Shown: positions 1 through 11,088 of the stretch, piece by piece
How the letters are laid out: every line of letters starts with the position of its first letter
Numbering within the stretch: position 1 is the first letter of the stretch
DNA from: Candidatus Uhrbacteria bacterium GW2011_GWC2_41_11
GTDB lineage: Bacteria > Patescibacteriota > Patescibacteriia > UBA9934 > GWF2-40-263
Length of the DNA: 11,088 bases
Assembly: GCA_000996355.1 (NCBI GenBank)
Contig: LCAH01000007.1
Coordinates: 1 to 11,088 of the forward strand
Reading direction: 5' to 3'
The notes under the pieces: model-generated
What the model saw: the letters and a program-made list of their open reading frames with translations, nothing else
Told to the model about the DNA's origin: nothing
Databases searched by the model: none
Position numbers and translations under genes: made by a program

Positions 1-226
1 CATGCACCATCTGGTGCATGGCTTACGGGGACCCCAGTTTTTCTCGCTGTACTTGATTGAGTACAGCTCGATAAAACTTGCACCCCGTGCACCAAAACTA
101 GTCTAAACTGAGAAAGTCCTAACGATATCTTTCGTATGGAAACATTCCTGGTTCAAAAACAACTTTTCCGCAAGAGAAAAATTGGTTTTGTTCTCGTAAG
201 TGTTCACAACTGCATTCAATGCATTC

Positions 227-257
227 AAAAAACCTCAACCTCACGTTGAGGTTTTTT
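227..257. terminator. Intrinsic-terminator-like hairpin flanked by an A-run upstream and a T6 run downstream, 35 nt upstream of the ribA start codon. It may terminate an upstream gene or act as an attenuator in a ribA leader.
   Basis: Stem 233-239 (cctcaac) pairs with 245-251 (gttgagg); loop is ctcac. A227-A232 precedes it and T252-T257 follows. Confidence 0.6.
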
Positions 258-291
258 GAATCTTATTATTTATTCTTAAAAGGAAACCTGT

Positions 292-897
292 ATGCAACAT
301 CCATTTACCGAAACAATGCTTGCGACAAAATTTGGACATTTCAATATTCGAGTGTATGCGGACACACAAGGAAAAGAAACCGTTCTTCTTTCAACAGAAA
401 AATTAGATCCGTCCATTCCTGTGTGTGTTCGTATTCATAGTGAGTGCATGACTGGAGATACGTTTGGAAGTTTACACTGTGATTGTGGAGAGCAGTTGGA
501 TGCCTCGCTTCAAAAGATCAAGGAAGGAGAAAATGGCGTATTGATTTATCTACGACAAGAAGGACGTGGTATTGGTTTATTTGAAAAAATCAAAACGTAT
601 CAATTACAGAAAAAAGGATATGATACCTATGAGGCAAATGTTCTTCTTGGACATGAACCTGACGAGCGAACATACGAGAAAGCAAAAATGGCACTTGAGG
701 ATTTGGGTATTACCCGTATTCGGCTTCTCACAAACAATCCTTCAAAAGTGAATGACATGATGAATCTCGGCATAGAGGTGGTTGAACGTATTCCGCTTGT
801 GATGCCAGCAAATACCTATAATGAACGTTATTTTATTTCTAAACGGGATAAATTTCATCATTTTTTTCAAGAAACAATTGGAGCAAAAGTTAGATAA
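292..897 (+). CDS. ribA: GTP cyclohydrolase II (riboflavin biosynthesis), stand-alone form not fused to DHBP synthase
   Basis: A 201-aa ORF with RBS AAAAGGAAA 6 nt before the ATG. It contains the diagnostic [10 protein letters not shown]...[10 protein letters not shown] zinc-binding Cys triad motif and the RQEGRGIGL motif of GCH II. Length is typical for the family (about 200 aa). Confidence 0.9.
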
Positions 898-913
898 GGA
901 AAAGTGGTTTAAA

Positions 914-944
914 CAAAAAACTCACCACAGAAGATATAGTGAGT
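914..944 (-). terminator. Candidate terminator for the minus-strand lipoprotein gene (hairpin followed by T-run on the minus strand)
   Basis: Stem 920-925 (actcac) pairs with 939-944 (gtgagt) around a 13-nt loop. The A-run 914-920 on the plus strand becomes a U-run after the hairpin on the minus strand. The large loop makes this only moderate. Confidence 0.4.
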
Positions 945-951
945 CAGGTCG

Positions 952-2115
952 TTATTCGGTCTGGAGTAATGCCCAAACATTCAGAACAGATGAGGCATTG
1001 GCAATGCCTCCTTGAGAAAAGAAACTGTGACCGGTTTCTCCAAAAGGAATTTCTTTTCCATCTCCCTGAATGAGAAAATATCCTCCGGTTTCGTCGCAGA
1101 TTTTTCCTGTGTTCCACTTATGAACCTCACAGATTTCTTCCGGGGTCATAAACGGATCATCTGCAGCAGCGATCGTGAAGGTTTTGTAGGTATACAACGT
1201 TTCGGACGGCGCAAACGGTCTTTGAAACGAGAGGTTCAGACCAACCATATCCGCGGCGGCCGTGAAGGACTCCGGAAAATTCCAGGTTCCAATTTCCTCC
1301 AAAGACGGAGATGTTGTCATGAGTCCGCCATTCGGGAGAGAATAGAACATGGTTTGAGAAATAGCGTCTCTCAGGATGATTTCAATACCATCCTCTGTAT
1401 TCCGGAGATAAGGGGTCAGTTCTCGCATGGCCGTACTTGTGAGGACATATCCATACAATCCTTCCGCATATGCCCAAGAGGTTTCAGAAAGCGGCACGGG
1501 TGCGATTTCCAGAATACGTTCAATACCGTATGTGTGAAAACTGGCTCTGGATAATTCCAGCTCGTATTCCATCACAGGCAACATTTGTCCGGCCATGGAA
1601 TGAACAACCATGGTATCCAATGGATGGAAGAATGGACTTGCCGGATCACTCAGAGTTTCCAGGAGATCAATTTCCGCATCAATGAATTCGGAGAGTCCGA
1701 TCTGACCATATACAGCATCAGATGGAACCCCGCTTTCTCCATGTCCCGGATGTGCAACAAGGAGAATGCCTTTCAGTCGGCAAGACTCAGGCATAGCAAG
1801 CCGTGCTTCCGCATATTTAAGAAAGATAAGCGGTGCGTTGGTAAAGCCGTGAAATTCGATTGACCACCCCTTTGCATCGCTACAGGCATAGGGATTAGGA
1901 ATTTCCAATACCTGCATATCAAATGCATTCTTATATCCTGTCATCGAGACCGGAATACGCAGGTCTTTTGTTAAAAACGAATCAGCAGGTTGTTTTTGAA
2001 GAATTTGCTGACTTTTTTCATTGGTTTCTTTCGGGTCTCCACACCCAATTGTAAAGGAAGAGAAACAACCAAAAACCATCAACACCCAAAACAGCATTTG
2101 TTTTTCGTGCAGCAC
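952..2115 (-). CDS. Secreted lipoprotein with alpha/beta-hydrolase-fold motifs (putative esterase/lipase-like hydrolase)
   Basis: Long ORF 952-2148. The N-terminus has a signal peptide with lipobox (MLFWVLMVFGCFSSFTIGC-G). An HG oxyanion-hole-like motif (ILLVAHPGHGESG) is followed about 66 aa later by a nucleophile-elbow-like VVHSMAG (GxSxG-like). The start is ambiguous: GTG at 2115 has a GGAG 5 nt upstream, ATG at 2097 gives the signal peptide directly, and ATG at 2148 is the longest. Confidence 0.7.
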   Translation of the reverse strand: MLHEKQMLFWVLMVFGCFSSFTIGCGDPKETNEKSQQILQKQPADSFLTKDLRIPVSMTGYKNAFDMQVLEIPNPYACSDAKGWSIEFHGFTNAPLIFLKYAEARLAMPESCRLKGILLVAHPGHGESGVPSDAVYGQIGLSEFIDAEIDLLETLSDPASPFFHPLDTMVVHSMAGQMLPVMEYELELSRASFHTYGIERILEIAPVPLSETSWAYAEGLYGYVLTSTAMRELTPYLRNTEDGIEIILRDAISQTMFYSLPNGGLMTTSPSLEEIGTWNFPESFTAAADMVGLNLSFQRPFAPSETLYTYKTFTIAAADDPFMTPEEICEVHKWNTGKICDETGGYFLIQGDGKEIPFGETGHSFFSQGGIANASSVLNVWALLQTE

Positions 2116-2147
2116 AGCTTCTCCTTTTGTATTAAGTTTACAGACCA

Positions 2148-2172
2148 CTTTCTCGTGATATACACGAGAAAG
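2148..2172. promoter_or_regulatory. Perfect 10-bp inverted repeat with 5-nt spacer (ctttctcgtg-atata-cacgagaaag) in the divergent promoter region between the lipoprotein gene and the 2308 gene. Candidate operator for a dimeric transcription factor.
   Basis: Read directly: 2148-2157 is the exact reverse complement of 2163-2172. Confidence 0.45.
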
Positions 2173-2307
2173 CTACGATATAGAATCACATGGGTAATAT
2201 ATCGTCAATTTTCTAGAGGGTACTCATTCATACCATTGACTTTTTATACAAAAACGTCTATGTTCAGTTGTTCCTATTTTTGCCACACGAAGAAAAAGGA
2301 GAAGAAA

Positions 2308-2805
2308 ATGGAACAAAAAATCGTACGAATGGTAAAAATATCTGATTCTGATAGTGAGTTTTTGACACGTCTTGAAGGAATTGGATTTGGATTTGGTCTG
2401 GAAGAAGAAATCGAACAAGGATATGTTCTTGTCGAAACAATTCTTCCGGAAGGTTGGACATGGTACGAGAGTGAACATCCGTATCTCCGAGATCCGCGCG
2501 GGAATATTCGAAGTTTCTGCGATTGGTATCAAGGAGGTTACTGTCATTGGTTTCATAGGTGTCTTTCTCTCCAAAGTAATGGAGAGCGGACGCCCGGACG
2601 AGAAGACAAACAGGATGATTTCATGTTTTGGATCGAGGTTTTGAAGAAAGGAAGGCTCGTTCACAAAACTCGTTCTGTACGTACGTCGTATCACGACCGT
2701 GGAAAACGGATGGAAGATTTGCGTCCACTTTATGCGGAAGCTGAAGGATGGATGGACGAGCATTATCCCAATTGGCATAATGTCTTTGCCTACTGGGATG
2801 AGTGA
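2308..2805 (+). CDS. Hypothetical protein (165 aa), Trp/His-rich, no recognisable family
   Basis: ATG at 2308 is preceded by AAAAAGGAGAAGAAA (strong RBS). The composition is normal and includes GWTWYESEHPYL...CDWYQGGYCHWFH. It is the first gene of an apparent two-gene operon. Confidence 0.6.
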   Translation: MEQKIVRMVKISDSDSEFLTRLEGIGFGFGLEEEIEQGYVLVETILPEGWTWYESEHPYLRDPRGNIRSFCDWYQGGYCHWFHRCLSLQSNGERTPGREDKQDDFMFWIEVLKKGRLVHKTRSVRTSYHDRGKRMEDLRPLYAEAEGWMDEHYPNWHNVFAYWDE

Positions 2806-2835
2806 AAGATTGTTCTTTTTTTGAAAGGAAAGACT

Positions 2836-3372
2836 ATGAAGATTACCAGAGAAATGCTTTCCGAATCTTTGAAAACGATTCTCGATATGTTGGTGAAAGA
2901 TGCCAATCTGCCTGAACGCATGCGTTGGGGAACGCATGTTCAGGTGAGAGATATGTCTATTGGCGCGGGTGCTATGGGACGTTTCATTGATGGGATCTTC
3001 GAAGTATCTGTGGGTGAAAATACCTGGGTCTTTGATGGAAACATAAGTGAGACGTCTTGTTACATTGGTTGGAATGTGGAAATTGAAACTGAAACCGGCT
3101 CGGTCACAGCTGTGCCAGTCATGAAGACACATTATAAGAGCGGACCAAAACCTCTCGATCCTGTATTGTTCGGTTTTGAACCACGAACCATTGGATCTTT
3201 GGGTCCATTGCGTCGATTTATTCCGTCCAGCGATGATGATGATCTGAGAGATCAAATAGATCTCGTCATCAAGAATTATGGTTTTTCTTTTGTGTATGGA
3301 ACACTAGAGGAAGTTCGTCGAGGTCGTGCAATATTGTACAAATGCTTGAGTGGATTTATCCATTCAACTTAA
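2836..3372 (+). CDS. Hypothetical protein (178 aa)
   Basis: ATG at 2836 with AAAGGAAAG RBS, 30 nt after the previous stop. The ORF track starts this frame at TTG 2821; the ATG has the better spacing. It ends at TAA 3370-3372, immediately followed by a strong terminator. Confidence 0.6.
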   Translation: MKITREMLSESLKTILDMLVKDANLPERMRWGTHVQVRDMSIGAGAMGRFIDGIFEVSVGENTWVFDGNISETSCYIGWNVEIETETGSVTAVPVMKTHYKSGPKPLDPVLFGFEPRTIGSLGPLRRFIPSSDDDDLRDQIDLVIKNYGFSFVYGTLEEVRRGRAILYKCLSGFIHST

Positions 3373-3400
3373 AAACCACCTTTTCGGTGGTTTTTTCTTT
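3372..3400. terminator. Bidirectional intrinsic terminator shared by the convergent genes ending at 3372 (+) and 3415 (-)
   Basis: Stem aaaaccacc (3372-3380) pairs with ggtggtttt (3386-3394); loop is ttttc. It is flanked by an A-run and a T-run (T6 then T7). Confidence 0.85.
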
Positions 3401-3414
3401 TTTTAAAGGAAAAA

Positions 3415-4245
3415 TTAAACACGATCACGTAATTGTTTTTCACCTGGTCCAAATGTTTTGTGATCTTGTTTGCGGCGTGGATTTTGACGGAGATCTTTTT
3501 CTTGTTTTGCGAGAAAAGCAAATCGTCTCGCATCTATTTTATCCGAATATTCATACGCGGTTCGGAATGTCTCAAGAAATGCGGGGATTTCAACTTTTCC
3601 GTTTGTTGGAATCCAATCCTCGTCATTTTGTTGAGTCCATCCGGCTGATTCAATGGCGGAAACCTGTGCCTGATCCGCAAGATAAAGAGCAAGAACATCC
3701 GTAATTTCCATTGCTGTTGCCAATCCTTCCTTTCCTTGCATTTTCTCTTTTTGCAGTTTGTGATCTAAATCTACTAACTTTGATTTTCTTTTATCCATTT
3801 CTTGTTTCAATTCCTGTTTTGTGGCTCGTAGATCTACTCCTTTCTCAGTCAAAACTTTTTCATATCCTCTGATTTCTCCTAAGAATGCTTCTGCCTTTTT
3901 TGTATCGGCCTCTATCTGAAATCCGCTTTCCAAAAGTGCTTCAAATTTTTTTTCTTGTATTTTTCTTTCCTGATCCGCTTCTGTTGGTTCTTGATGTGAT
4001 TCGAACTGTCCTGTTTTTCTTCGTGGGAGAGTCGACAGTTTTGCAGAAACAAGATCAATAGCCTTTCTCATTTTTTCTAAAACGCCATGTAAACGATTTT
4101 TTTCTTTTTCCGTTTCCTGTGTTGCTTCTTTGAAGCGTTCTCCTAATCTTTCCTGGTCACTTTTTTCCACTCGTTTAATAACCTCCTTTTCCGCCGGTTG
4201 TTGTGGTCTTGTTTCTCCTTCTCCTCCGCTTTTAAAGAAAGCCAT
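3415..4245 (-). CDS. Hypothetical coiled-coil protein (276 aa), highly charged K/E/Q-rich
   Basis: Single long ORF with heptad-like E/K-rich segments (EKEKNRLHGVLEKMRKAIDLV..., KQELKQEMDKRKSKLVDLDHKLQKEK). A GGAT RBS-like sequence sits 6 nt upstream of the ATG at 4245. It ends at the shared terminator. Confidence 0.6.
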   Translation of the reverse strand: MAFFKSGGEGETRPQQPAEKEVIKRVEKSDQERLGERFKEATQETEKEKNRLHGVLEKMRKAIDLVSAKLSTLPRRKTGQFESHQEPTEADQERKIQEKKFEALLESGFQIEADTKKAEAFLGEIRGYEKVLTEKGVDLRATKQELKQEMDKRKSKLVDLDHKLQKEKMQGKEGLATAMEITDVLALYLADQAQVSAIESAGWTQQNDEDWIPTNGKVEIPAFLETFRTAYEYSDKIDARRFAFLAKQEKDLRQNPRRKQDHKTFGPGEKQLRDRV

Positions 4246-4283
4246 ATTGATTTATCCTATTCGTATTAAAGAAATTCACAGTC

Positions 4284-4481
4284 ATGATACCAAACCATAT
4301 GACACCAGAACAAATGGAAGAACTCCGGCTTGAGTATGAACGCATTGGAGAACGCATGCGGGAGCTTGCGGAAAAAGCAACAGACCTTGAGAAACGAATG
4401 TTTGATGTTTTGAAGGAAATCATGAAACAGGAGGATAACGAAAAAATAGAAGAAATTCGAAAGAATATTCTCGGAGGATAA
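4284..4481 (+). CDS. Small hypothetical helical protein (65 aa; an alternative start at ATG 4299 gives 60 aa)
   Basis: The amino-acid composition is typical of real alpha-helical proteins (EQMEELRLEYERIGERMRELAEKATDLEKRMFDVLKEIMKQ). The antisense frame (4232-4513 minus) is Ser/Phe/Arg-rich low-complexity, which is typical of the wrong strand. There is no clear RBS. Confidence 0.4.
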   Translation: MIPNHMTPEQMEELRLEYERIGERMRELAEKATDLEKRMFDVLKEIMKQEDNEKIEEIRKNILGG

Positions 4482-4506
4482 ATTTTAAATATATCGTTGT
4501 TGTCGT

Positions 4507-4535
4507 TTGACAAATGTGTTTATTTTTGGTAACAA
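4507..4535 (+). promoter_or_regulatory. Candidate sigma70-type promoter for the kinase-like gene
   Basis: TTGACA (4507-4512), a 17-nt spacer, then TAACAA (4530-4535), about 45 nt upstream of the ATG at 4580. Confidence 0.35.
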
Positions 4536-4579
4536 AAGCTCATTCGTCGGACTTTAACAATAGAGAGAAGGGGAAAACA

Positions 4580-5383
4580 ATGGACATTATCATCGGTCAA
4601 GAAATTGGTGAATATCGCACTGAATCCCTTGTTGCGCGTGGAACAAATTCAACCATTTATAGAGGCACTCATCTTCTCATGGGAGAGGAAGTTTGTCTCA
4701 AGCGGTATGACCTTGACATAAAGCCTGCAATTCCGATTGGGGAAGCGGATGTTTTGTCACGGTTGCAACATACGGAGATTCCAAAATTTCGGAATCTTCT
4801 TTCGTTAAAAGATGATTCTTATGTGGTTGTCACGCATTTCGTTTCCGGTTCCCCATTGGGTCAAGCCGTGCAAAAGCACGGAAATATGGATCCGGAAATC
4901 GTGGCATCATTCTTGGAGAGAATGTTGCATTTGCTCAGATATATGCATGTAGATCAGAGATGTGTGCATGGAGACATCAAGCCAGAGCATATTTTGGCAA
5001 GGACTGATCATTCGATTACGCTTGTTGGATTCGGCGTTGCGGAATTTTCTTCTGGAAATTGGGAAAAGAATCGAGGGTGGACAGACTTGTTCGCTCCACC
5101 AGAACAAGTTGAGGGTCGTCCGCTTGTTCCACAGATGGATCTTTACGCACTTGGAATGAGTATGGTGTATCTGCTCTGTGGTGGAAACGAGGAACAATTT
5201 AAGAATGGAGAAATTCCGGACGAAGTCCCCGACCCTATGGGACGATTCCTCTCTCGTTTGGTCATGAAGGATCCTGCCAAACGTTTGAACTGGACGCAGA
5301 TGGATCTTTTCAAGGAGTGGGTGGAGATCCGTTTCGAGTGTTTCAAGAGGTCGACGACAGAAGGAAAACTACTCTTTCTTTGA
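4580..5383 (+). CDS. Hanks-type (eukaryotic-like) Ser/Thr protein-kinase-fold protein with degenerate catalytic motifs. Possible pseudokinase or atypical kinase.
   Basis: ATG 4580 is preceded by AGAGAAGGGGAAAACA. Kinase subdomains appear in the canonical order: beta3 Lys (EVCLKRY), helix-C Glu (EADVLSRLQH), catalytic loop HGDIKPEH (HRDxKxxN with R to G and N to H), GFG in place of DFG (LVGFGVAEF), APE-like (FAPPEQVEG), and subdomain IX (DLYALGMSMVYLLCG). The glycine-rich loop is degenerate (ARGTNSTIYRG). It is a stand-alone 267-aa domain with no signal peptide or TM segment. Confidence 0.8.
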   Translation: MDIIIGQEIGEYRTESLVARGTNSTIYRGTHLLMGEEVCLKRYDLDIKPAIPIGEADVLSRLQHTEIPKFRNLLSLKDDSYVVVTHFVSGSPLGQAVQKHGNMDPEIVASFLERMLHLLRYMHVDQRCVHGDIKPEHILARTDHSITLVGFGVAEFSSGNWEKNRGWTDLFAPPEQVEGRPLVPQMDLYALGMSMVYLLCGGNEEQFKNGEIPDEVPDPMGRFLSRLVMKDPAKRLNWTQMDLFKEWVEIRFECFKRSTTEGKLLFL

Positions 5384-5396
5384 GTGATCTGACATG

Positions 5397-5425
5397 AGGA
5401 TTTCCGGCACGGAGATCCTTTTTTC
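5397..5425 (+). terminator. Intrinsic terminator after the kinase-like gene
   Basis: 9-bp stem 5398-5406 pairs with 5410-5418 (one G-U pair); loop is gca; followed by T6 (5419-5424). Confidence 0.7.
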
Positions 5426-5465
5426 TTGACGTTTTTTCTCTTTTTGCTAGGGTTGGATGTCGTTC

Positions 5466-5474
5466 TGGTAGAAT
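5466..5474 (+). promoter_or_regulatory. Extended -10 promoter element (TGgTAGAAT) upstream of the 5513 gene
   Basis: TG at 5466-5467 and TAGAAT at 5469-5474, about 38 nt upstream of the GTG start. A weak -35-like TTGCTA lies at 5442-5447. Confidence 0.35.
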
Positions 5475-5512
5475 GATGTGTTTCTTAAAACTGAATAAGG
5501 AAGGAGAAAGAA

Positions 5513-6529
5513 GTGTCGCGAGGAGGAACTGATTATGACCGTGACGTGTCGGATCGGTCCATGCGAACGAGTAGTGGCTTTACCACAGTCGCAGAGGAAG
5601 CGATGGCAACACGACAATGGTTCGACCCTGCTCTGTTGCCAAAAGGGAGAGTGATCAAGACACTTTGCAAGAGCCCGATCGCTCTTCCATTTGATGTAAC
5701 CGGATCCTTGGGGGGTCTCGCCAAGATCACCTATGACAAAATGCCCATGACTGCCGGAGAACTCAAGAAGCGTTCCTATCTTCAGGACTGTCAGATTTGT
5801 CCGATCGCGGTCGGAGATGTTGTTTCCGACAGAGGACCGCTCCAGATCGGGGAATTCGTCGTTCCGCGGGAACTTGACAGTTATCTTCAACGCCTTTGGC
5901 TCGAAGGGGGAGGTGGTCGTCAAGGATATGAGTCCTATGAATTCGTCGCCTATTTCCTTGCATACCATTGCGATATTCCAGAGGCCGACACACCATTCGT
6001 CATTTTTATAGGTGATGAACGGTTCCGGGAGGACCTTCATAGAAATGCGCTTCAAGCGTATTTCGGAGGTATTGAGCATGAAGACATGAATGCTTTCAAA
6101 GTGTTTGCCGACCTCAGGAGAAAGTTCAAGAACAATGTATTTCTGATTCACCGATATTACGATGACATGTGTACGGATAAAGAAGTCATTGACCAGTGGT
6201 CAGGAGTTCTTGGAGCCGATCACGTGATCAATCTCGGACACGGAAACGACACAGCTGTTGCAGACGTCATGCTCGGCATCTTTGCCCTGATGGGCGGGAC
6301 ACGAACTCTGGATCAGTATCTGGAAGATATGCGGGAACGCGGTCAGGATCAGACGCGTCTTGCCTTTGTTCGTAGGGCTCTGTCTGTTCTGAAGCCGCCG
6401 TCCTCAATCCAGAAAAAAGAGGAAGATGCAGATCAGTCGCAGCAGGTATTGGCGGCGGAAGAGAAGCAGAAAAGTCCGTCCCGCAAGAAGGGAAAATCCG
6501 TCTTCGATTCCTCGAATTGGGACGTCTGA
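5513..6529 (+). CDS. Hypothetical protein (338 aa) with an acidic/lysine-rich C-terminal tail. It is the first gene of the GC-elevated cassette and has no family I can assign.
   Basis: GTG start at 5513 with AAGGAAGGAGAAAGAA RBS. Composition is ordinary and GC is higher than the flanking regions. The overlapping minus-strand ORF 5447-6151 is judged spurious. The C-terminal region contains a glycine-rich turn (GIFALMGGTRTLDQYLED) that loosely resembles the PGGxGTxxE turn of LOG/SLOG-type Rossmann-like proteins. That is only a weak motif-level resemblance. Confidence 0.6.
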   Translation: MSRGGTDYDRDVSDRSMRTSSGFTTVAEEAMATRQWFDPALLPKGRVIKTLCKSPIALPFDVTGSLGGLAKITYDKMPMTAGELKKRSYLQDCQICPIAVGDVVSDRGPLQIGEFVVPRELDSYLQRLWLEGGGGRQGYESYEFVAYFLAYHCDIPEADTPFVIFIGDERFREDLHRNALQAYFGGIEHEDMNAFKVFADLRRKFKNNVFLIHRYYDDMCTDKEVIDQWSGVLGADHVINLGHGNDTAVADVMLGIFALMGGTRTLDQYLEDMRERGQDQTRLAFVRRALSVLKPPSSIQKKEEDADQSQQVLAAEEKQKSPSRKKGKSVFDSSNWDV

Positions 6530-6540
6530 AGACAATTTAA

Positions 6541-6593
6541 CCTGTGGGATGCTGGTGCTCAAAATTTTGCACTTGTCGTTCCACAGGTTTTTT
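6541..6593 (+). terminator. Intercistronic hairpin plus T6 between the two cassette genes (candidate partial terminator or attenuator)
   Basis: Outer stem cctgtgg (6541-6547) pairs with ccacagg (6581-6587). There is an inner stem gtgc/gcac (6556-6559 with 6569-6572), then TTTTTT 6588-6593. Confidence 0.4.
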
Positions 6594-6632
6594 AGAAAGT
6601 TTCGTTTTTAAGAATCAATCATCGGAGGAAAG

Positions 6633-8027
6633 ATGAATCATATCATTGGTCGCGGGATTGGACTCGGAGATGAGGGAAAGGGAAAGATCATAGCGGCCAT
6701 CGGACGGAAACTTGGCATTCGGACAGGTATACGCGACACTGGAGCCAATCAAGCCGTTCATCACCTTCCAGGACCTAATGGTATTTGGCATGGGTTTGCG
6801 CAATTTTGTTCCCATTCCTTTCAGAATGACGCGTGGACATTCCTCGCGCGGGGTATGGCGGTTGAGCTTGAGGCACTTGTGCGTGAGGCGGAAGTGCTGG
6901 TGACCAAAGGAGTCGTTGATCCTATTCGACGGGTTGTGATCGATGACCAGTGTGCGATTGTGACACCCATGCACAAAATGGTCGGACGTATGGAGGAATT
7001 GATTCGTAGGCGTGGTTCGTGCGGTATGGGCGCAGGAAGAACAATTCGCGATCGGGAGGCAGGAAAAGGAATTCGAGTTTCACATGTTCTGGACGGATCC
7101 GTTCGAGATCGGTTGCGGGAAATGGTGACAGAAACCATAGCCGAGGCGCGACAGTTACTTGAACAACATCCGACCGATGATATGCGTGCTGAATTTTCCT
7201 ATTTCATTCATCGGTGTAATCCGGACATGCTGGCCGAAACCTATGAACATATTCTTGCGTATTCTGGCGTACTGGTAGACCATGATCGTCGGTTATTTCT
7301 GCAGCGCATCCAGGAGGAACGGGTATTTTTCGAGGGGGCACATGGAACTTTGTTGGATGTCCGGTTCGGATTCCATCCGTATGTGACTCAGTCCAAGACC
7401 ACGTGGCAACATATCGAGGAGCTTGTCAGTCCTCAAATATCCTTGAAAAAACTTGGGATCTCGAGGTCTTATAGTCTTCGATATGGCATGGGACCTCTCA
7501 TAACAAAAGACCCTATCCTTTCGAAACATCTTCAGGATTCACGTAATCCTGAAGATTCTTGGCAGGGGTCAGTACACATTGGATGGCTTGACCTTCCGAT
7601 GTGGAGATATGGAATTCTGTTAAACGATCGACTCGATGGTATTGCCCTTACTTGTCTTGACCACCTAACTGGGTATCCAAGCATTCGAGTATGTACGTCC
7701 TATTTTTATGATGGAAAGCAGGACTCGCTCGATACATTCTTTGAATGGACGCGCACCAAACAAGGAACAGCCGAGATCCTCGGTTTCAAGAAGCCAGAAC
7801 TACCATTCGAGAGCGAAGAACGCACGCGGATTCTTCATCAATGTAGGCCTGGTAAGTGGATTGAATTTCCGGGGTGGAACAAGGACATCCGACAAGTAAG
7901 ACGGGTGCAAGATCTACCGAAAGCCGCCCGCAACTATGTTGACTTTCTTGAAAGCTGGGCAGGATTTGCTCTGCCCATTCGGATCATTTCGGTTGGTCCG
8001 GATGTTGAAAGCTCAATTTTTATCTGA
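6633..8027 (+). CDS. Divergent adenylosuccinate synthetase (PurA)-family GTP-dependent ligase. It is probably not the housekeeping PurA.
   Basis: ATG 6633 with GGAGGAAAG RBS. PurA motifs are present throughout: GDEGKGKI P-loop (catalytic Asp/Lys), GANQAVHH (compare GGHNAGHT), GSCGMGAGRT (compare GTTGRGIGP), FFEGAHGTLLDVRFGFHPYVTQSKTT (compare [25 protein letters not shown]), RSYSLRYGMGPL (compare KAYSTRVGAGPF), IGWLD...DGIALTCLDHL (compare TGWLD...SGFCLTKLDVL), FPGW and IISVGPDVESSI (compare IISTGPDRTETM). The aspartate-binding TTGRRRR loop is replaced by QGSVHI, and the conserved Gln of EGAQG is His. Confidence 0.85.
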   Translation: MNHIIGRGIGLGDEGKGKIIAAIGRKLGIRTGIRDTGANQAVHHLPGPNGIWHGFAQFCSHSFQNDAWTFLARGMAVELEALVREAEVLVTKGVVDPIRRVVIDDQCAIVTPMHKMVGRMEELIRRRGSCGMGAGRTIRDREAGKGIRVSHVLDGSVRDRLREMVTETIAEARQLLEQHPTDDMRAEFSYFIHRCNPDMLAETYEHILAYSGVLVDHDRRLFLQRIQEERVFFEGAHGTLLDVRFGFHPYVTQSKTTWQHIEELVSPQISLKKLGISRSYSLRYGMGPLITKDPILSKHLQDSRNPEDSWQGSVHIGWLDLPMWRYGILLNDRLDGIALTCLDHLTGYPSIRVCTSYFYDGKQDSLDTFFEWTRTKQGTAEILGFKKPELPFESEERTRILHQCRPGKWIEFPGWNKDIRQVRRVQDLPKAARNYVDFLESWAGFALPIRIISVGPDVESSIFI

Positions 8028-8057
8028 AATCCGTGACGCATACTCGCGGATTTTTTT
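8028..8057 (+). terminator. Intrinsic terminator after the PurA-like gene
   Basis: Stem 8027-8035 pairs with 8045-8053 (including one G-U pair); loop is acgcatact; T7 at 8051-8057. Confidence 0.7.
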
Positions 8058-8061
8058 GTAC

Positions 8062-8086
8062 AAAAAATCCGTCTTGTTCAGACGGA
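8062..8086 (-). terminator. Intrinsic terminator for the minus-strand zinc-ribbon gene
   Basis: Stem tccgtct (8068-8074) pairs with agacgga (8080-8086); loop is tgttc. The A6 run at 8062-8067 becomes a U6 run after the hairpin on the minus strand, directly downstream of the stop at 8094. Confidence 0.7.
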
Positions 8087-8093
8087 AAGTCGT

Positions 8094-8627
8094 TTAGGGT
8101 CCGGCACAGAGCGGGGGTTCTTGATTCCGGAATTTGGTACGCAATATGAGAAGATTTTTTTTCTCCTGCTCATATGCTTCCAATTCCACGGGATCTGTCG
8201 GTAGAACAAAGATGATTGTGTTGCAGTGTTGACAATACTGGTACGTTTTTTTCTCTCTCGGATCCGCAAGAAGCGGTCGTGAGAAACTTATGACATTGTA
8301 GACGAGCTCCTCGAGTTCGTTTCTCCAGGATTCTGGGATCATCGTGTTTTGTTGGAAGGAAGCGAACCCGCAGACAGGACACTGTTCAGGGCAGACATCC
8401 GGGTTCTGGAACGAAGTAAGAGCTTGTTCCCGAATTTGTTCCGGTGTTTTTCCACGATGTTCAGCTTCGAAGGATAGGGAGCATTTATTACATCCCAACC
8501 GTTCGAGAACTTCATAAGAATACCCTGTTTGCGTGCATCGGGTATTCCAGATTCCGATGAGCCGTCCTTCTTTACATGAAGGACAAGAATGGTTCATTAG
8601 TAAACCTTTCAATTGTTCCAGACTCAT
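8094..8627 (-). CDS. Hypothetical Cys-rich protein with two predicted zinc-ribbon motifs (177 aa)
   Basis: Strong RBS AGGAGGAAACCCC before the ATG at 8627. Cys pairs CPSC(15-18)...CNKC(46-49) and CPEQCPVC(80-87)...CQHC(133-136) are spaced as in zinc ribbons. Confidence 0.65.
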   Translation of the reverse strand: MSLEQLKGLLMNHSCPSCKEGRLIGIWNTRCTQTGYSYEVLERLGCNKCSLSFEAEHRGKTPEQIREQALTSFQNPDVCPEQCPVCGFASFQQNTMIPESWRNELEELVYNVISFSRPLLADPREKKTYQYCQHCNTIIFVLPTDPVELEAYEQEKKNLLILRTKFRNQEPPLCAGP

Positions 8628-8742
8628 GGGGTTTCCTCCTAAGTGTGTTTAAAAAGAACCTTTGAAAATCCTATGGAAGGATAATAAATATGTCAATATA
8701 AAATTGATTTTGTTATGATGAATTCATTCTTTTTTATTTTTT

Positions 8743-9303
8743 ATGAACGAGCAACTATTCGAATGGAAACAATACCGTAGATCCGAACCGATTCTCTCTA
8801 AAGAAGAGCGTACCAAAGAGCAGGAGTTACGGAATCCAAAAACGATTCTTGAATTTGTTGTGAATCAGGAAAATGGAGTTTTGACAGAAAATATCTGGGC
8901 AAAGAATGTCATCGACCCATCAGAAACCGTTTATCAATTGCTCAGGGATGAAAGAACCGGACAGCTTGCCATTATAAAATGGAAAAAAGGCGACATTGTA
9001 AAACCGCATCCTACTGAAGGATTCAAACGTGAATATGCGGAAAGCCATTATCGGACAAGTTATGGGCATGCCGGTCAATTTGAGGAAGTTGGTCTCTATG
9101 GATCTAGAACAGCCCTTCAAAAATCTATTCAAGAAGTTCGTGCCATTGGAGCAACTTATCAACCTCTTGCAGAATTGCAAAAGGCGATTGATGAAGGAAT
9201 AAGAAAACAAGATGCTGAAGATCAAGAGATGTTGGCAGGACATTCGAAATCTGAAGAAGATGGTGATGATGGACATGATTCCATGTTGGCACGCGCTGCT
9301 TAA
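8743..9303 (+). CDS. Hypothetical protein (186 aa) with an acidic C-terminal tail
   Basis: Single ORF with ordinary composition. The upstream region is AT-rich with no clear Shine-Dalgarno, so the start is less certain. It is divergent from the zinc-ribbon gene. Confidence 0.5.
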   Translation: MNEQLFEWKQYRRSEPILSKEERTKEQELRNPKTILEFVVNQENGVLTENIWAKNVIDPSETVYQLLRDERTGQLAIIKWKKGDIVKPHPTEGFKREYAESHYRTSYGHAGQFEEVGLYGSRTALQKSIQEVRAIGATYQPLAELQKAIDEGIRKQDAEDQEMLAGHSKSEEDGDDGHDSMLARAA

Positions 9304-9343
9304 TATCTAGGTTATCCTCTTGAGGAAAAGTTTTGTGTCAGTT

Positions 9344-10606
9344 ATGCTACGGAGCATGTCATTTTCTCTCTTCTCTTCTCGTATACGTTTGCCGCGAACA
9401 GTGACATTTCTCATTGTCCTTGTTTGTATTTTAACATCGTTTGTTTTTGGATTGTTTCTTGGACGCCAGCAAGGAGTTCGTCTGGCTGTTCCGTCTGGAG
9501 AAGGTCGTGTGTTGGGTCAAGGGGGGAAAACAATGACGGCATTGGAAAAAGATGTTGACTTCCAATTATTTTGGAATGTTTGGAATTTGGTAAAAGAAAC
9601 ATACTATCAACAACCTGTTTCTGATAAATCGCTCTTTTATGGAGCGGTCATGGGAATGGTTGCAGGATTACAGGATCCATATTCTGTGTTCTTTGATCCA
9701 ACAGCTGCAGAAGAATTCAATAAAGATTTGACAGGAAGTTTTGAAGGAGTCGGAGCGGAAATCGGTATCAAAAATCATCAGCTGCAAATCGTGGCTCCAT
9801 TGCCAGGAAGTCCAGCTGAAGCAGCTGGGATAAAATCAGGTGATAAGATTTTTTTGATTGACGGAAAAGAGACAGCCAACATGACCGTAGAAGAAGCCAT
9901 ATCTTTGATTCGCGGAGAACGAGGGACAACGGTCGTTTTGACAATTTCTCGAGACGGATTAAAAGATGTCATGGAAGTTTCGGTTGTTCGCGATACGATA
10001 AAAGTGAATAGTGTACGTGCGGAAATGCGTGAAGACGGCATCGCAGTTATTCACATGTATTTATTTAATGAAGACACGGAACCGTTGTTTACCGCGGCTG
10101 TGAATGAAAGTCTGAGTCATGGAGCACGAGGAATCATTCTTGACTTACGGAGCAACCCAGGTGGACTTTTAACAGCTGCGATTGATGTGGCAAGTGCATG
10201 GATTGGTAAAGATCCGGTTGTCATTCAACGCGTTCGTGATCGACAAGATGTGTTTCCCGGATCTGTCTCTGCTCGTTTGCAGGGAATTCCAACCGTGGTG
10301 CTTGTAAACGGCGGTTCCGCTTCCGGTTCGGAAATTGTTGCCGGAGCTTTGCAAGATTATGGTTATGCAACACTTATCGGAGAACAAACATTTGGAAAAG
10401 GATCTGTCCAGGATTATCGCGAGTTAGATGACGGGTCTGCAGTAAAAATTACCATTGCCGAATGGTTGACTCCATATGGACGTTCGATTAATCATGTGGG
10501 AATTGCTCCGGATGTGCAGGTTCCGTTTACGGAAGAGGATTTTAAAAATGGACGTGATCCACAATTTGATACAGCCATTGAATGGCTTCAAAAGGCTATC
10601 AAATAA
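9344..10606 (+). CDS. ctp: C-terminal processing (tail-specific) protease, S41 family, with PDZ domain and N-terminal membrane anchor
   Basis: PDZ region (GVGAEIGIKNH...GDKIFLIDGKE). S41 signatures ILDLRSNPGGLL, the catalytic Ser in NGGSASGSEI and the catalytic Lys in GEQTFGKGSVQ. One TM helix (VTFLIVLVCILTSFVFGLFLG). The start is uncertain among ATG 9344, GTG 9335 (GAGGAAAAG 4 nt upstream) and TTG 9320 (used by the ORF track). Confidence 0.9.
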   Translation: MLRSMSFSLFSSRIRLPRTVTFLIVLVCILTSFVFGLFLGRQQGVRLAVPSGEGRVLGQGGKTMTALEKDVDFQLFWNVWNLVKETYYQQPVSDKSLFYGAVMGMVAGLQDPYSVFFDPTAAEEFNKDLTGSFEGVGAEIGIKNHQLQIVAPLPGSPAEAAGIKSGDKIFLIDGKETANMTVEEAISLIRGERGTTVVLTISRDGLKDVMEVSVVRDTIKVNSVRAEMREDGIAVIHMYLFNEDTEPLFTAAVNESLSHGARGIILDLRSNPGGLLTAAIDVASAWIGKDPVVIQRVRDRQDVFPGSVSARLQGIPTVVLVNGGSASGSEIVAGALQDYGYATLIGEQTFGKGSVQDYRELDDGSAVKITIAEWLTPYGRSINHVGIAPDVQVPFTEEDFKNGRDPQFDTAIEWLQKAIK

Positions 10607-11088
10607 TGTCTTGTATGAATCATGTGCCTTCTCCGGAATCTATTCCACGGTCTCGACCGTCACGTTCAAGTTCAAAACGTGCAAAAAATATGGTTCATGA
10701 AGTATCAGCGGGCGGGCTTGTATTCAAACGAACTCCAAAAGGAATTTTGTTTGCCATGATGAAAGATTCGTATGGAAAATGGACGTTCCCAAAAGGACAT
10801 GTAGAATCTGGAGAAGAAAAAGAAGAGGCTGCTGCCCGGGAAAGCATGGAAGAACTGGGTCTAGAACAAATTCGACTTCTCGAATCATTAGGACAAATTA
10901 CGATTTGGTTTCGTGATCGTTTTGTAAAAAAAGGAGCGCTGGTTCACAAAGACATTCATTATTTTTTATTTGCGACTCTTCCGGACACAGAATTGTTTCC
11001 TCAAACATCTGAACATATCCAGGAAGCTGCATGGATTCCAGCAAAGGAATTATTGGAACGATCTTTTTATCCGGATCTTGTTCCTGTG
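10606..11088 (+). CDS. Nudix-family hydrolase (partial; continues past the window end)
   Basis: Frame-1 ORF from ATG 10606, overlapping the ctp stop as TAATG. A canonical Nudix box GHVESGEEKEEAAARESMEELGL (Gx5Ex7REUxEExGU) is present. The N-terminal 28 aa are Ser/Arg/Lys-rich; alternative starts are ATG 10615 or 10690. It is absent from the ORF track because there is no in-window stop. Confidence 0.8.
   Translation, partial: MSCMNHVPSPESIPRSRPSRSSSKRAKNMVHEVSAGGLVFKRTPKGILFAMMKDSYGKWTFPKGHVESGEEKEEAAARESMEELGLEQIRLLESLGQITIWFRDRFVKKGALVHKDIHYFLFATLPDTELFPQTSEHIQEAAWIPAKELLERSFYPDLVPV

Follow-up and report, generated by a model that had tools for sequence, protein, structure and literature searches.

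An intact gene on contig LCAH01000007.1 of Candidatus Uhrbacteria bacterium GW2011_GWC2_41_11 (6633..8027, forward strand; 464 amino acids (aa) plus stop codon), labelled 'Adenylosuccinate synthetase' by NCBI (KKR86863.1), encodes a PurA-fold paralogue that is strongly supported as a member of a separate, functionally unstudied clade, distinct both from housekeeping adenylosuccinate synthetase (PurA) and from PurZ. The stretch analysed here, the window, comprises positions 1 to 11,088 of the contig, and its coordinates are given in nucleotides (nt). Judged by sequence comparison, members of this clade have kept the residues that bind GTP and activate the purine and have replaced those that hold L-aspartate, while their genes stand almost without exception downstream of a gene for a protein with a von Willebrand factor type A (vWA) fold. 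We consider it probable that the enzyme works within a mobile module, where it would pass a GTP-activated 6-oxopurine nucleotide to an amine other than free aspartate, partnered with the vWA protein. The original prediction, made from the sequence of the window, had described one highly divergent PurA-family protein. Hundreds of genes from phages and cells share this divergence as a family trait, the gene belongs to a conserved kinase-vWA-PurA-like module, and the Uhrbacteria copy is aberrant within its own family and may be inactive.

Fold and clade placement of the Uhrbacteria protein

The predicted PurA fold was borne out over the full length of the protein, which scored 227 bits against Pfam PF00709 Adenylsucc_synt (E = 4e-67). 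Its closest solved structures are canonical PurAs with ~25-30% identity (Yersinia pestis 3hid, E = 8e-34), and an AlphaFold2 model computed with 58 homologues in the alignment (mean predicted local distance difference test score 90.9) superposed on long-type adenylosuccinate synthetases with template modelling (TM) scores of 0.76-0.82, compared with 0.45-0.58 and 12-14% identity for the PurZ and PurZ0 structures. The same protein, identical in sequence, is present on 18 contigs from groundwater metagenomes representing several samples, as well as in the NCBI assemblies of Candidatus Uhrbacteria bacterium GW2011_GWF2_41_16 and GWC2_41_11.

Family-level models placed the protein outside both characterised groups. 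The NCBIfam purA equivalogs (TIGR00184 / NF002223) gave it 178 bits, below their cut-offs of 395 and 402, and the PurZ model NF038379 gave 33.5 bits against a cut-off of 300. A neighbour-joining (NJ) tree was constructed from 35 clade sequences and 33 canonical PurAs, seven of them canonical viral, and separated the two sets in 100/100 bootstrap replicates, in agreement with the separate clade that had been suspected; the window protein lies inside the non-canonical group, beside Myxococcota-type relatives. It also scored 372 bits on a clade hidden Markov model (HMM) built without it, versus 216 bits on a canonical HMM. Over 80 viral loci, the difference between clade and canonical HMM scores was bimodal, ranging from +126 to +396 for clade genes and from -282 to -409 for canonical ones. 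A search of the literature for functional studies of clade members returned only genome announcements and one remark from 2006, in a paper where PurA and Ro are merely named as 'specialist' mycobacteriophage genes.

Clade signature in the active site

In PurA, Asp13 serves as the base and His41 as the acid, GTP phosphorylates O6 of inosine monophosphate (IMP), and this phosphate then leaves as the aspartate alpha-amine attacks. Residues were numbered after E. coli PurA (sequence identical to PDB 1kjx), 133 clade members were compared with 18 canonical sequences, and 119 independent database relatives served as a check set; where two counts are given below, they refer to clade members and relatives in this order. 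The motifs quoted in the original prediction were all located in the protein, at aa 12-18, 128-137, 233-238 and 309-320, and every motif coordinate in this section is on the forward strand.

The activation machinery is the conserved part of the pocket. Across the clade, the P-loop, D13, K16, H41, Q224, T239, R272 and D333 are kept, with D13 and K16 present in ~130/133 members and 119/119 relatives and the D333 equivalent being Asp in 108/133 and 118/119. In the window protein, the P-loop GDEGKGK (aa 12-18; 6666..6686) supplies the Asp13 and Lys16 equivalents, NQAVHH (aa 39-44; 6747..6764) retains the His41 equivalent as His43, and TCLDHL (aa 340-345; 7650..7667) retains the guanine-specifying Asp333 equivalent as D343, with K331 lost. 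The GTP-site and catalytic positions (P-loop, D13, K16, H41, D333) are all occupied, and T252 and R283 are kept as well.

Around this core, much has changed. Gln34 is Asn throughout the clade, R131, R143 and K331 are lost, N38 is Gln in 131/133 members (Gln40 in the window), T129 is Cys in 120/133 and 108/119, and V273 is His in 130/133 and 119/119. The window carries Cys130 within GSCGMGAG (aa 128-135; 7014..7037, followed by RT to aa 137), which takes the place of the canonical phosphate loop GTTGRGIG, and its LRYGMGP motif (aa 282-288; 7476..7496) reads R-Y-G where the clade has R-H-G. The original prediction that much of the IMP site had been kept therefore needs to be scaled back: with Gln for N38, Cys for T129 and Gly for R143, T239 alone of the four 5'-phosphate ligands is unchanged. 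Nor is the reported His in place of Gln224 diagnostic by itself; it is present (His237 in FEGAHG, aa 233-238; 7329..7346), but a canonical Chlamydiae PurA (P0053) also reads EGAHG.

The most extensive remodelling affects the Arg-rich aspartate loop. In both the HMMER and the MAFFT alignment, the window segment WQG-SVHIGWLD falls against E. coli TTGRRRRTGWLD with one residue deleted. T300-T301-G302-R303-R304-R305-R306 is thereby aligned with W-Q-G-(gap)-S-V-H, and R303, R305 and R306 have no Arg counterpart. Since both programs agree with the manual alignment, the loop that the original prediction had described as replaced is truly gone. The remodelled loop, SWQGSVHIGWLD (aa 309-320; 7557..7592), has Trp310 for T300, Gln311 for T301, a deletion at R303, Val for R305 and His for R306. 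Mapping onto E. coli PurA thus gave a mixed picture, with Asp13 and His41 kept, Gln224 changed to His, Arg303 deleted and Arg305 replaced by Val. Much of this is shared by the clade, in which T300 is Trp, Tyr or Phe, T301 is Gln in 127/133 members, R303 is deleted in 130/133 and R305 is Phe, Trp or Leu; R306 is retained as Arg in 128/133 and 118/119.

E. coli Arg303 touches both the IMP 2'-oxygen and the aspartate substrate; the corresponding loop of PurZ reaches aspartate with its tip, which is invariant among PurZ proteins (PMC8342488). Read against these contacts, the signature indicates that the clade has retained its predicted GTP-binding and purine-lactam (6-oxopurine O6) activating residues (D13, K16, H41, Q224, T239, R272 and D333) and has replaced every residue expected to hold L-aspartate or the ribose 2'-OH (T300, T301, R303 and R305), along with three of the four IMP 5'-phosphate ligands. 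Activation machinery has been kept, while the machinery for holding aspartate and part of the ribose phosphate has apparently been replaced.

The vWA partner and the rest of the module

Upstream of the PurA-like gene by 104 nt, and on the same strand, lies a gene for a 338-aa protein with a GTG start (5513..6529, forward strand). The partner has no match in Pfam, NCBIfam or PADLOC and falls into phrog_2971, a PHROG family of unknown function, but structure-based analysis indicated a vWA fold. It carries a motif of the metal ion-dependent adhesion site (MIDAS) type, DVTGS, at aa 61-65 (5693-5707), keeps all 21 family-invariant residues, this motif included, and is 48% identical (E = 3e-92) to the protein encoded upstream of the closest PurA-like relative (locus L007 in our numbering). 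An alignment probe of a genome collection with the vWA family identified it in at least 477 species genomes, the window's own assembly not being among those returned, with hosts in candidate phyla radiation (CPR) groups, Planctomycetota, Myxococcota, Bdellovibrionales, DPANN archaea and many Pseudonocardiaceae and Nocardiaceae. The gene also occurs on 61 viral contigs, and a profile search against 1.84 billion cluster representatives yielded 2,019 matches at E <= 1e-3. The family, with ~2,000 cluster representatives at 50% identity, has no Pfam model. Its eukaryotic homologues (P0184-P0250) carry C-terminal U-box (PF04564) or SAM fusions and come from EukProt transcriptomes, Pelomyxa and contigs with low-complexity N-rich sequence; the contig of one such fusion gene (P0205) has no PurA-like neighbour. 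Some CPR contigs (L016 and L022) carry two or three vWA copies, adjacent or divergent, with or without pyruvate kinase-like and PurA-like genes, which suggests duplication of the module.

Pairing of the two genes is close to absolute. A PurA-like gene follows on the same strand in 142 of the 148 non-redundant loci found through the vWA gene, and in 219/225 overall; four of the six loci that break the pairing are contig ends or fragments. The reciprocal search with the PurA-like alignment showed a vWA gene upstream of 70/73 clade-type viral genes, and the three unpaired ones start within ~640 nt of a contig end. None of the seven canonical viral PurAs has a vWA gene (0/7).

A further feature of the partner is its N-terminus. 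Among database relatives with a full N-terminus, 153/174 start with MGG and 161/174 have Gly at position 2, and 187/196 partners from non-redundant loci begin with Met-Gly and have an aromatic residue shortly after it. The remainder consist of fragments, GTG/TTG starts or plain MG starts, apart from two true exceptions, the window (MSRGG) and a jumbo phage locus, L013 (MSESADY). L013 is the one well-sampled locus that has the J-domain kinase, the vWA gene and the mini pyruvate kinase described below and lacks the PurA-like gene; its mini pyruvate kinase persists despite this absence. Gly2 is thus missing where the PurA-like gene is aberrant or absent, a suggestive indication that the glycine co-varies with the enzyme. 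Model confidence is low over the first ~10 residues of the partner, and this tail is therefore probably flexible.

The pair is embedded in a larger module found in Bxz1-like mycobacteriophages, jumbo phages, CPR bacteria, DPANN archaea, Myxococcota and many actinobacteria. Both genes are present in ~200 Cluster C1 (Bxz1-like) mycobacteriophages of the phage collection, where phage LRRHood encodes a Ser/Thr kinase (gp253), the vWA-like protein (gp254), a small protein (gp255) and a 'PurA-like adenylosuccinate synthetase' (gp256). The last of these is the closest named relative of the window protein, although known by its annotation label only; it belongs to the same clade with ~33% identity and the same gene order. 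The Bxz1-like proteins differ from the window in having the full clade signature (RHG, WQGKFR and EGAQG) and a partner that starts with MGSG.

A kinase-like gene precedes the vWA gene in 87/148 loci (62/112 viral loci). N-terminal J domains with an HPD motif are present in 108/132 non-redundant module kinases (e.g. L031:6824-7912 and L012:4523-5653), and most of these kinases are predicted pseudokinases because the catalytic Asp is Ala in 100/132. A minority of loci, such as L007, L015 and L017, instead encode a classic AAA ATPase (PF00004) and a ~200-aa protein. Between the vWA and PurA-like genes, loci from CPR, archaea, Myxococcota and Planctomycetota encode a ~305-aa mini pyruvate kinase (L031:8966-9877, L030:8931-9845, L013:8843-9757 and L024:1398-2351); it consists of the PF00224 barrel domain only, exceeds the Pfam score threshold and has the SFV, KIES and ARDDL motifs intact. 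Clean four-gene operons were seen at L025, L029, L030 and L031, with an extra uridine-kinase-family gene upstream at L031 and L025, and a NUDIX gene lies downstream in 58/60 actinobacterial loci. The recurrent phage neighbours are NAMPT, NUDIX-NrtR, calcineurin-like phosphoesterases (Metallophos), AAA_33 (polynucleotide kinase (PNK)-like) kinases, RNA ligase, RlaP, Ro60/TROVE, Thg1 and polynucleotide kinase, which are nucleotide-salvage, NAD-salvage and RNA-repair functions. At one phage-like locus (L008, contig_128780, 5742..17706), the genes flanking the module encode a Ro60/TROVE-vWA protein, a HAD/PNK3P phosphatase and an 1880-aa protein with 2',5'-RNA-ligase and NUDIX domains. PADLOC gave no evidence for membership of a known defence system: it matched only the window kinase, through generic kinase models (PD-T4-6, mad6 and MkoA), and left the PurA-like and vWA proteins unmatched.

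In the window, the kinase position is taken by a 289-aa Ser/Thr-kinase-like protein (4514..5383, forward strand; Pkinase 96.9 bits) with catalytic loop HGDIKPEH, GFG in place of DFG and no J domain; this protein is matched best by the J-domain kinase encoded beside the L013 vWA gene. A consensus scan placed a terminator-like hairpin of 11 pairs with a T run after this gene (5396..5420, forward strand), an indication that the vWA and PurA-like genes are a two-gene unit of their own, and a second one (8068..8086, reverse strand) between the PurA-like gene and a convergent gene for a 177-aa protein. The GC content of the vWA (0.508) and PurA-like (0.490) genes exceeds that of the rest of the window (0.416), and the pair sits between ribA and an S41 protease gene amid open reading frames (ORFs) that match no family in the searched libraries; both features are compatible with lateral acquisition. 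The nearest relatives come from high-GC Myxococcota and Planctomycetota-type contigs.

The locus reading covered ~21 kb around the gene and included ribosomal proteins L9 and L27, CTP synthase and MraY, and the locus therefore belongs to a cellular CPR genome. Between ribA and the kinase gene (952..4481), five ORFs of 398 aa (reverse), 165 aa (forward), 183 aa (forward), 276 aa (reverse, Glu/Lys-rich) and 65 aa (forward) are unmatched in Pfam, NCBIfam, PHROGs and PADLOC; all related contigs (L001-L006) carry this set as well. The convergent 177-aa protein (8094..8627, reverse strand) has no family match and contains four CxxC pairs (CPSC, CNKC, CPVC and CQHC), suggesting two zinc ribbons; it is followed by a 186-aa ORF (8743..9303, forward strand), also with no family match. 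A 201-aa protein (292..897) has a GTP cyclohydrolase II domain only, and is too short for the bifunctional 3,4-dihydroxy-2-butanone-4-phosphate synthase / GTP cyclohydrolase II that one public record calls it. Rfam and tRNA scans of the window detected no RNA element.

Candidate reactions and alternative explanations

In the mechanism that we favour, with some reservation, the module would comprise a (pseudo)kinase or AAA ATPase, the vWA protein, sometimes the mini pyruvate kinase, the PurA-like enzyme and sometimes a NUDIX protein, in this order. The enzyme would use GTP to phosphorylate the lactam oxygen of a 6-oxopurine nucleotide, as PurA does, with altered recognition of the ribose phosphate, and the activated purine nucleotide would then be transferred to an amine other than free L-aspartate, the vWA protein acting as a functional partner. 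As acceptor, the most specific candidate is the nearly invariant N-terminal Gly on the flexible tail of this partner, a small amine being the alternative, and the phage setting among nucleotide-salvage, NAD-salvage and RNA-repair genes suggests that the module may have a role in phage-host conflict. The different chemistry that the original prediction had proposed is one that we can infer and no more, while its claim of a non-housekeeping paralogue stands on the equivalog score, the bootstrap split, the pocket signature and the vWA pairing.

MIDAS vWA proteins encoded beside an ATPase and an enzyme are also found in the AAA/MoxR-vWA pairs CbbQ-CbbO, NorQ-NorD and BchI-BchD (magnesium chelatase). 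The present module differs in that its ATPase is of the classic PF00004 type and most loci have a J-domain pseudokinase in its stead. By analogy with these pairs, the module may have a remodelling or activase role, and the vWA-kinase-phosphatase triads of Ter systems offer a second analogy.

If glycine were the acceptor, the enzyme would be a protein-modifying ligase that joins purine C6 to the alpha-amine of the vWA N-terminal Gly and yields an N6-(peptidyl)adenylate, an N-terminal 'purinylation'. We regard this specific form as unlikely. It would fit the obligate pairing and the loss of exactly those residues that hold the aspartate carboxylates, as well as the flexible, conserved Gly-x-x-x-aromatic tail and the aberrant or missing enzyme at the only two loci whose partner lacks Gly2.

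Several points weigh against the mechanism that we favour. The substrate, nucleophile and product of every clade member are deduced from sequence, and the joint loss of Gly2 and the enzyme rests on two loci. At L103, the vWA gene is of the MGG type and the surrounding 7.7 kb contain no PurA-like gene. The eukaryotic vWA homologues with U-box or SAM fusions retain an MGGDYYDRDV N-terminus and no eukaryotic PurA-like gene was present among the 120 best relatives, so the N-terminal Gly may serve an enzyme-independent role. The mini pyruvate kinase of many operons fits high-turnover small-molecule catalysis better than stoichiometric modification of a partner. Finally, the loss of clade-invariant residues from the window copy could simply mean that it is inactive.

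One possible explanation, though not a likely one, is that the clade enzymes act purely on small molecules, converting IMP, ITP, dIMP, GMP or XMP to a 6-amino or N6-substituted nucleotide with ammonia or a small amine, while the vWA protein and the kinase or AAA ATPase only regulate or scaffold. Adenylate pools might be rebuilt in this way, or a signalling or toxic nucleotide made, during infection. The conserved catalytic and purine-site residues are as expected for such an enzyme, the mini pyruvate kinase with its SFV, KIES and ARDDL motifs could regenerate GTP, and the upstream uridine-kinase-like genes of L031 and L025, the actinobacterial NUDIX genes (58/60 loci) and the NAD-salvage genes NAMPT and NUDIX near the phage modules would be in keeping with it. 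It leaves unexplained, however, why a vWA gene is obligatory and immediately upstream and why the partner's N-terminal Gly is nearly invariant, and the nucleotide substrate itself is uncertain given that the 2'-OH ligand and three of the four IMP 5'-phosphate ligands are changed.

A second possibility, to which we give a similarly minor weight, concerns the Uhrbacteria copy, which could be a remnant or pseudoenzyme without catalytic activity, left over from a module gained by lateral transfer, with a structural role if retained at all. Several of its residues depart from the clade. It is the sole member of the 133, and the sole sequence against the 119 relatives, to have Tyr at the V273 position (Tyr284; clade His) and His at the R306 position (His315; clade Arg), which makes it unique among ~250 sequences, and at Q224 it has the rare His237 where 128/133 and 118/119 have Gln. 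Gly36 is changed to Ala and Gly40 to Val (Val42) in addition. Its partner starts with MSRGG instead of MGG, its kinase has no J domain, and the gap of only 104 nt between the vWA and PurA-like genes leaves no mini pyruvate kinase. The protein also sits on a long branch (mean distance 1.43 versus 1.13 within the clade). Accelerated evolution of the enzyme alone was rejected as the cause of this divergence, as no other proteins of the sub-clade diverge as far as the two from the window: their mean identity to other loci is 41% for the vWA protein (47% among the others) and 36% for the PurA-like protein (40% among the others).

Against inactivity, the ORF runs over the full length without disruption, D13, K16, H43, T252, R283 and D343 are all retained, the vWA partner keeps its 21 invariant residues including the MIDAS, the identical protein recurs on 18 contigs from several samples, and His and Tyr are chemically plausible functional replacements. 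We infer that the Uhrbacteria copy is a minimal, horizontally acquired and drifted form of the module. Lacking the J domain, the mini pyruvate kinase and Gly2, and with Tyr284, His315 and His237 in the pocket, its enzyme may be either re-specialised or catalytically degenerate.

It is very improbable that the gene encodes a housekeeping adenylosuccinate synthetase that is merely fast-evolving, as many CPR proteins are. The public records do carry this label, and the PurA fold extends over the full length with an intact P-loop. With canonical PurA (EC 6.3.4.4; E. coli 1ade/1cg0 series) the clade also shares Asp13, Lys16, His41, Thr239, Arg272 and Asp333 and, probably, the first half-reaction of GTP-dependent purine O6 phosphorylation. 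However, the window protein scores 178 bits where the equivalog cut-off is 395, its clade includes phage genes and is split from canonical PurA in every bootstrap replicate, all three canonical aspartate-loop arginines are missing, and the pair is GC-atypical for the window. The clade differs from canonical PurA in its 25-30% identity, the remodelled aspartate loop, N38Q, T129C, V273H and the loss of R131, R143 and K331, and in being mobile, phage-borne and always linked to a preceding vWA gene, as canonical PurA never is in these data.

An extremely improbable alternative is a PurZ-type enzyme making the precursor of a modified DNA base such as 2-aminoadenine: clade members are frequent in phages and the PHROG family name cites a 2-aminooxy adenylosuccinate synthetase, but the PurZ model gives 33.5 bits against its cut-off of 300, structural similarity to PurZ (TM 0.45-0.58, 12-14% identity) is far below that to long-type PurA (TM 0.76-0.82), PurZ retains the aspartate loop (PMC8342488) that the clade has lost, the window ORFs contain no domains of the datZ, mazZ or dpoZ type, and the clade is common in cellular genomes too. 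The analogy with PurZ drawn in the original prediction holds conceptually, and fails at the level of these scores and structures. PurZ and PurZ0 (succino-amino-deoxyadenylate synthase of Z-genome phages; 6fm1, 7odx and 7vf6) are likewise phage-borne, repurposed PurA folds and set a precedent for a change of substrate. PurZ is short, archaeal-type and aspartate-using with its loop kept, whereas the clade derives from long-type PurA, has lost the loop and has other gene partners.

After PurZ, the clade would mark the second time that the PurA fold was independently repurposed, here for another third substrate. The label 'adenylosuccinate synthetase' is attached to hundreds of genes of phages, CPR bacteria, DPANN archaea and actinobacteria even though their products are predicted to be unable to bind aspartate in the manner of PurA, and metabolic reconstructions of reduced genomes such as those of the CPR would wrongly credit them with a step of AMP synthesis. 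These genes are part of a conserved four- or five-gene module without a described function that is carried by ~200 sequenced Bxz1-like mycobacteriophages and many jumbo phages, where it lies among NAD-salvage and RNA-repair genes, the kind of place in which phage counter-defence functions have turned up. Cultured Mycobacterium smegmatis phages carry the module, which makes it directly testable. Were N-terminal purinylation to prove true, it would be a categorically new protein-nucleotide linkage, in a phage-borne module with a J-domain pseudokinase or an AAA ATPase.

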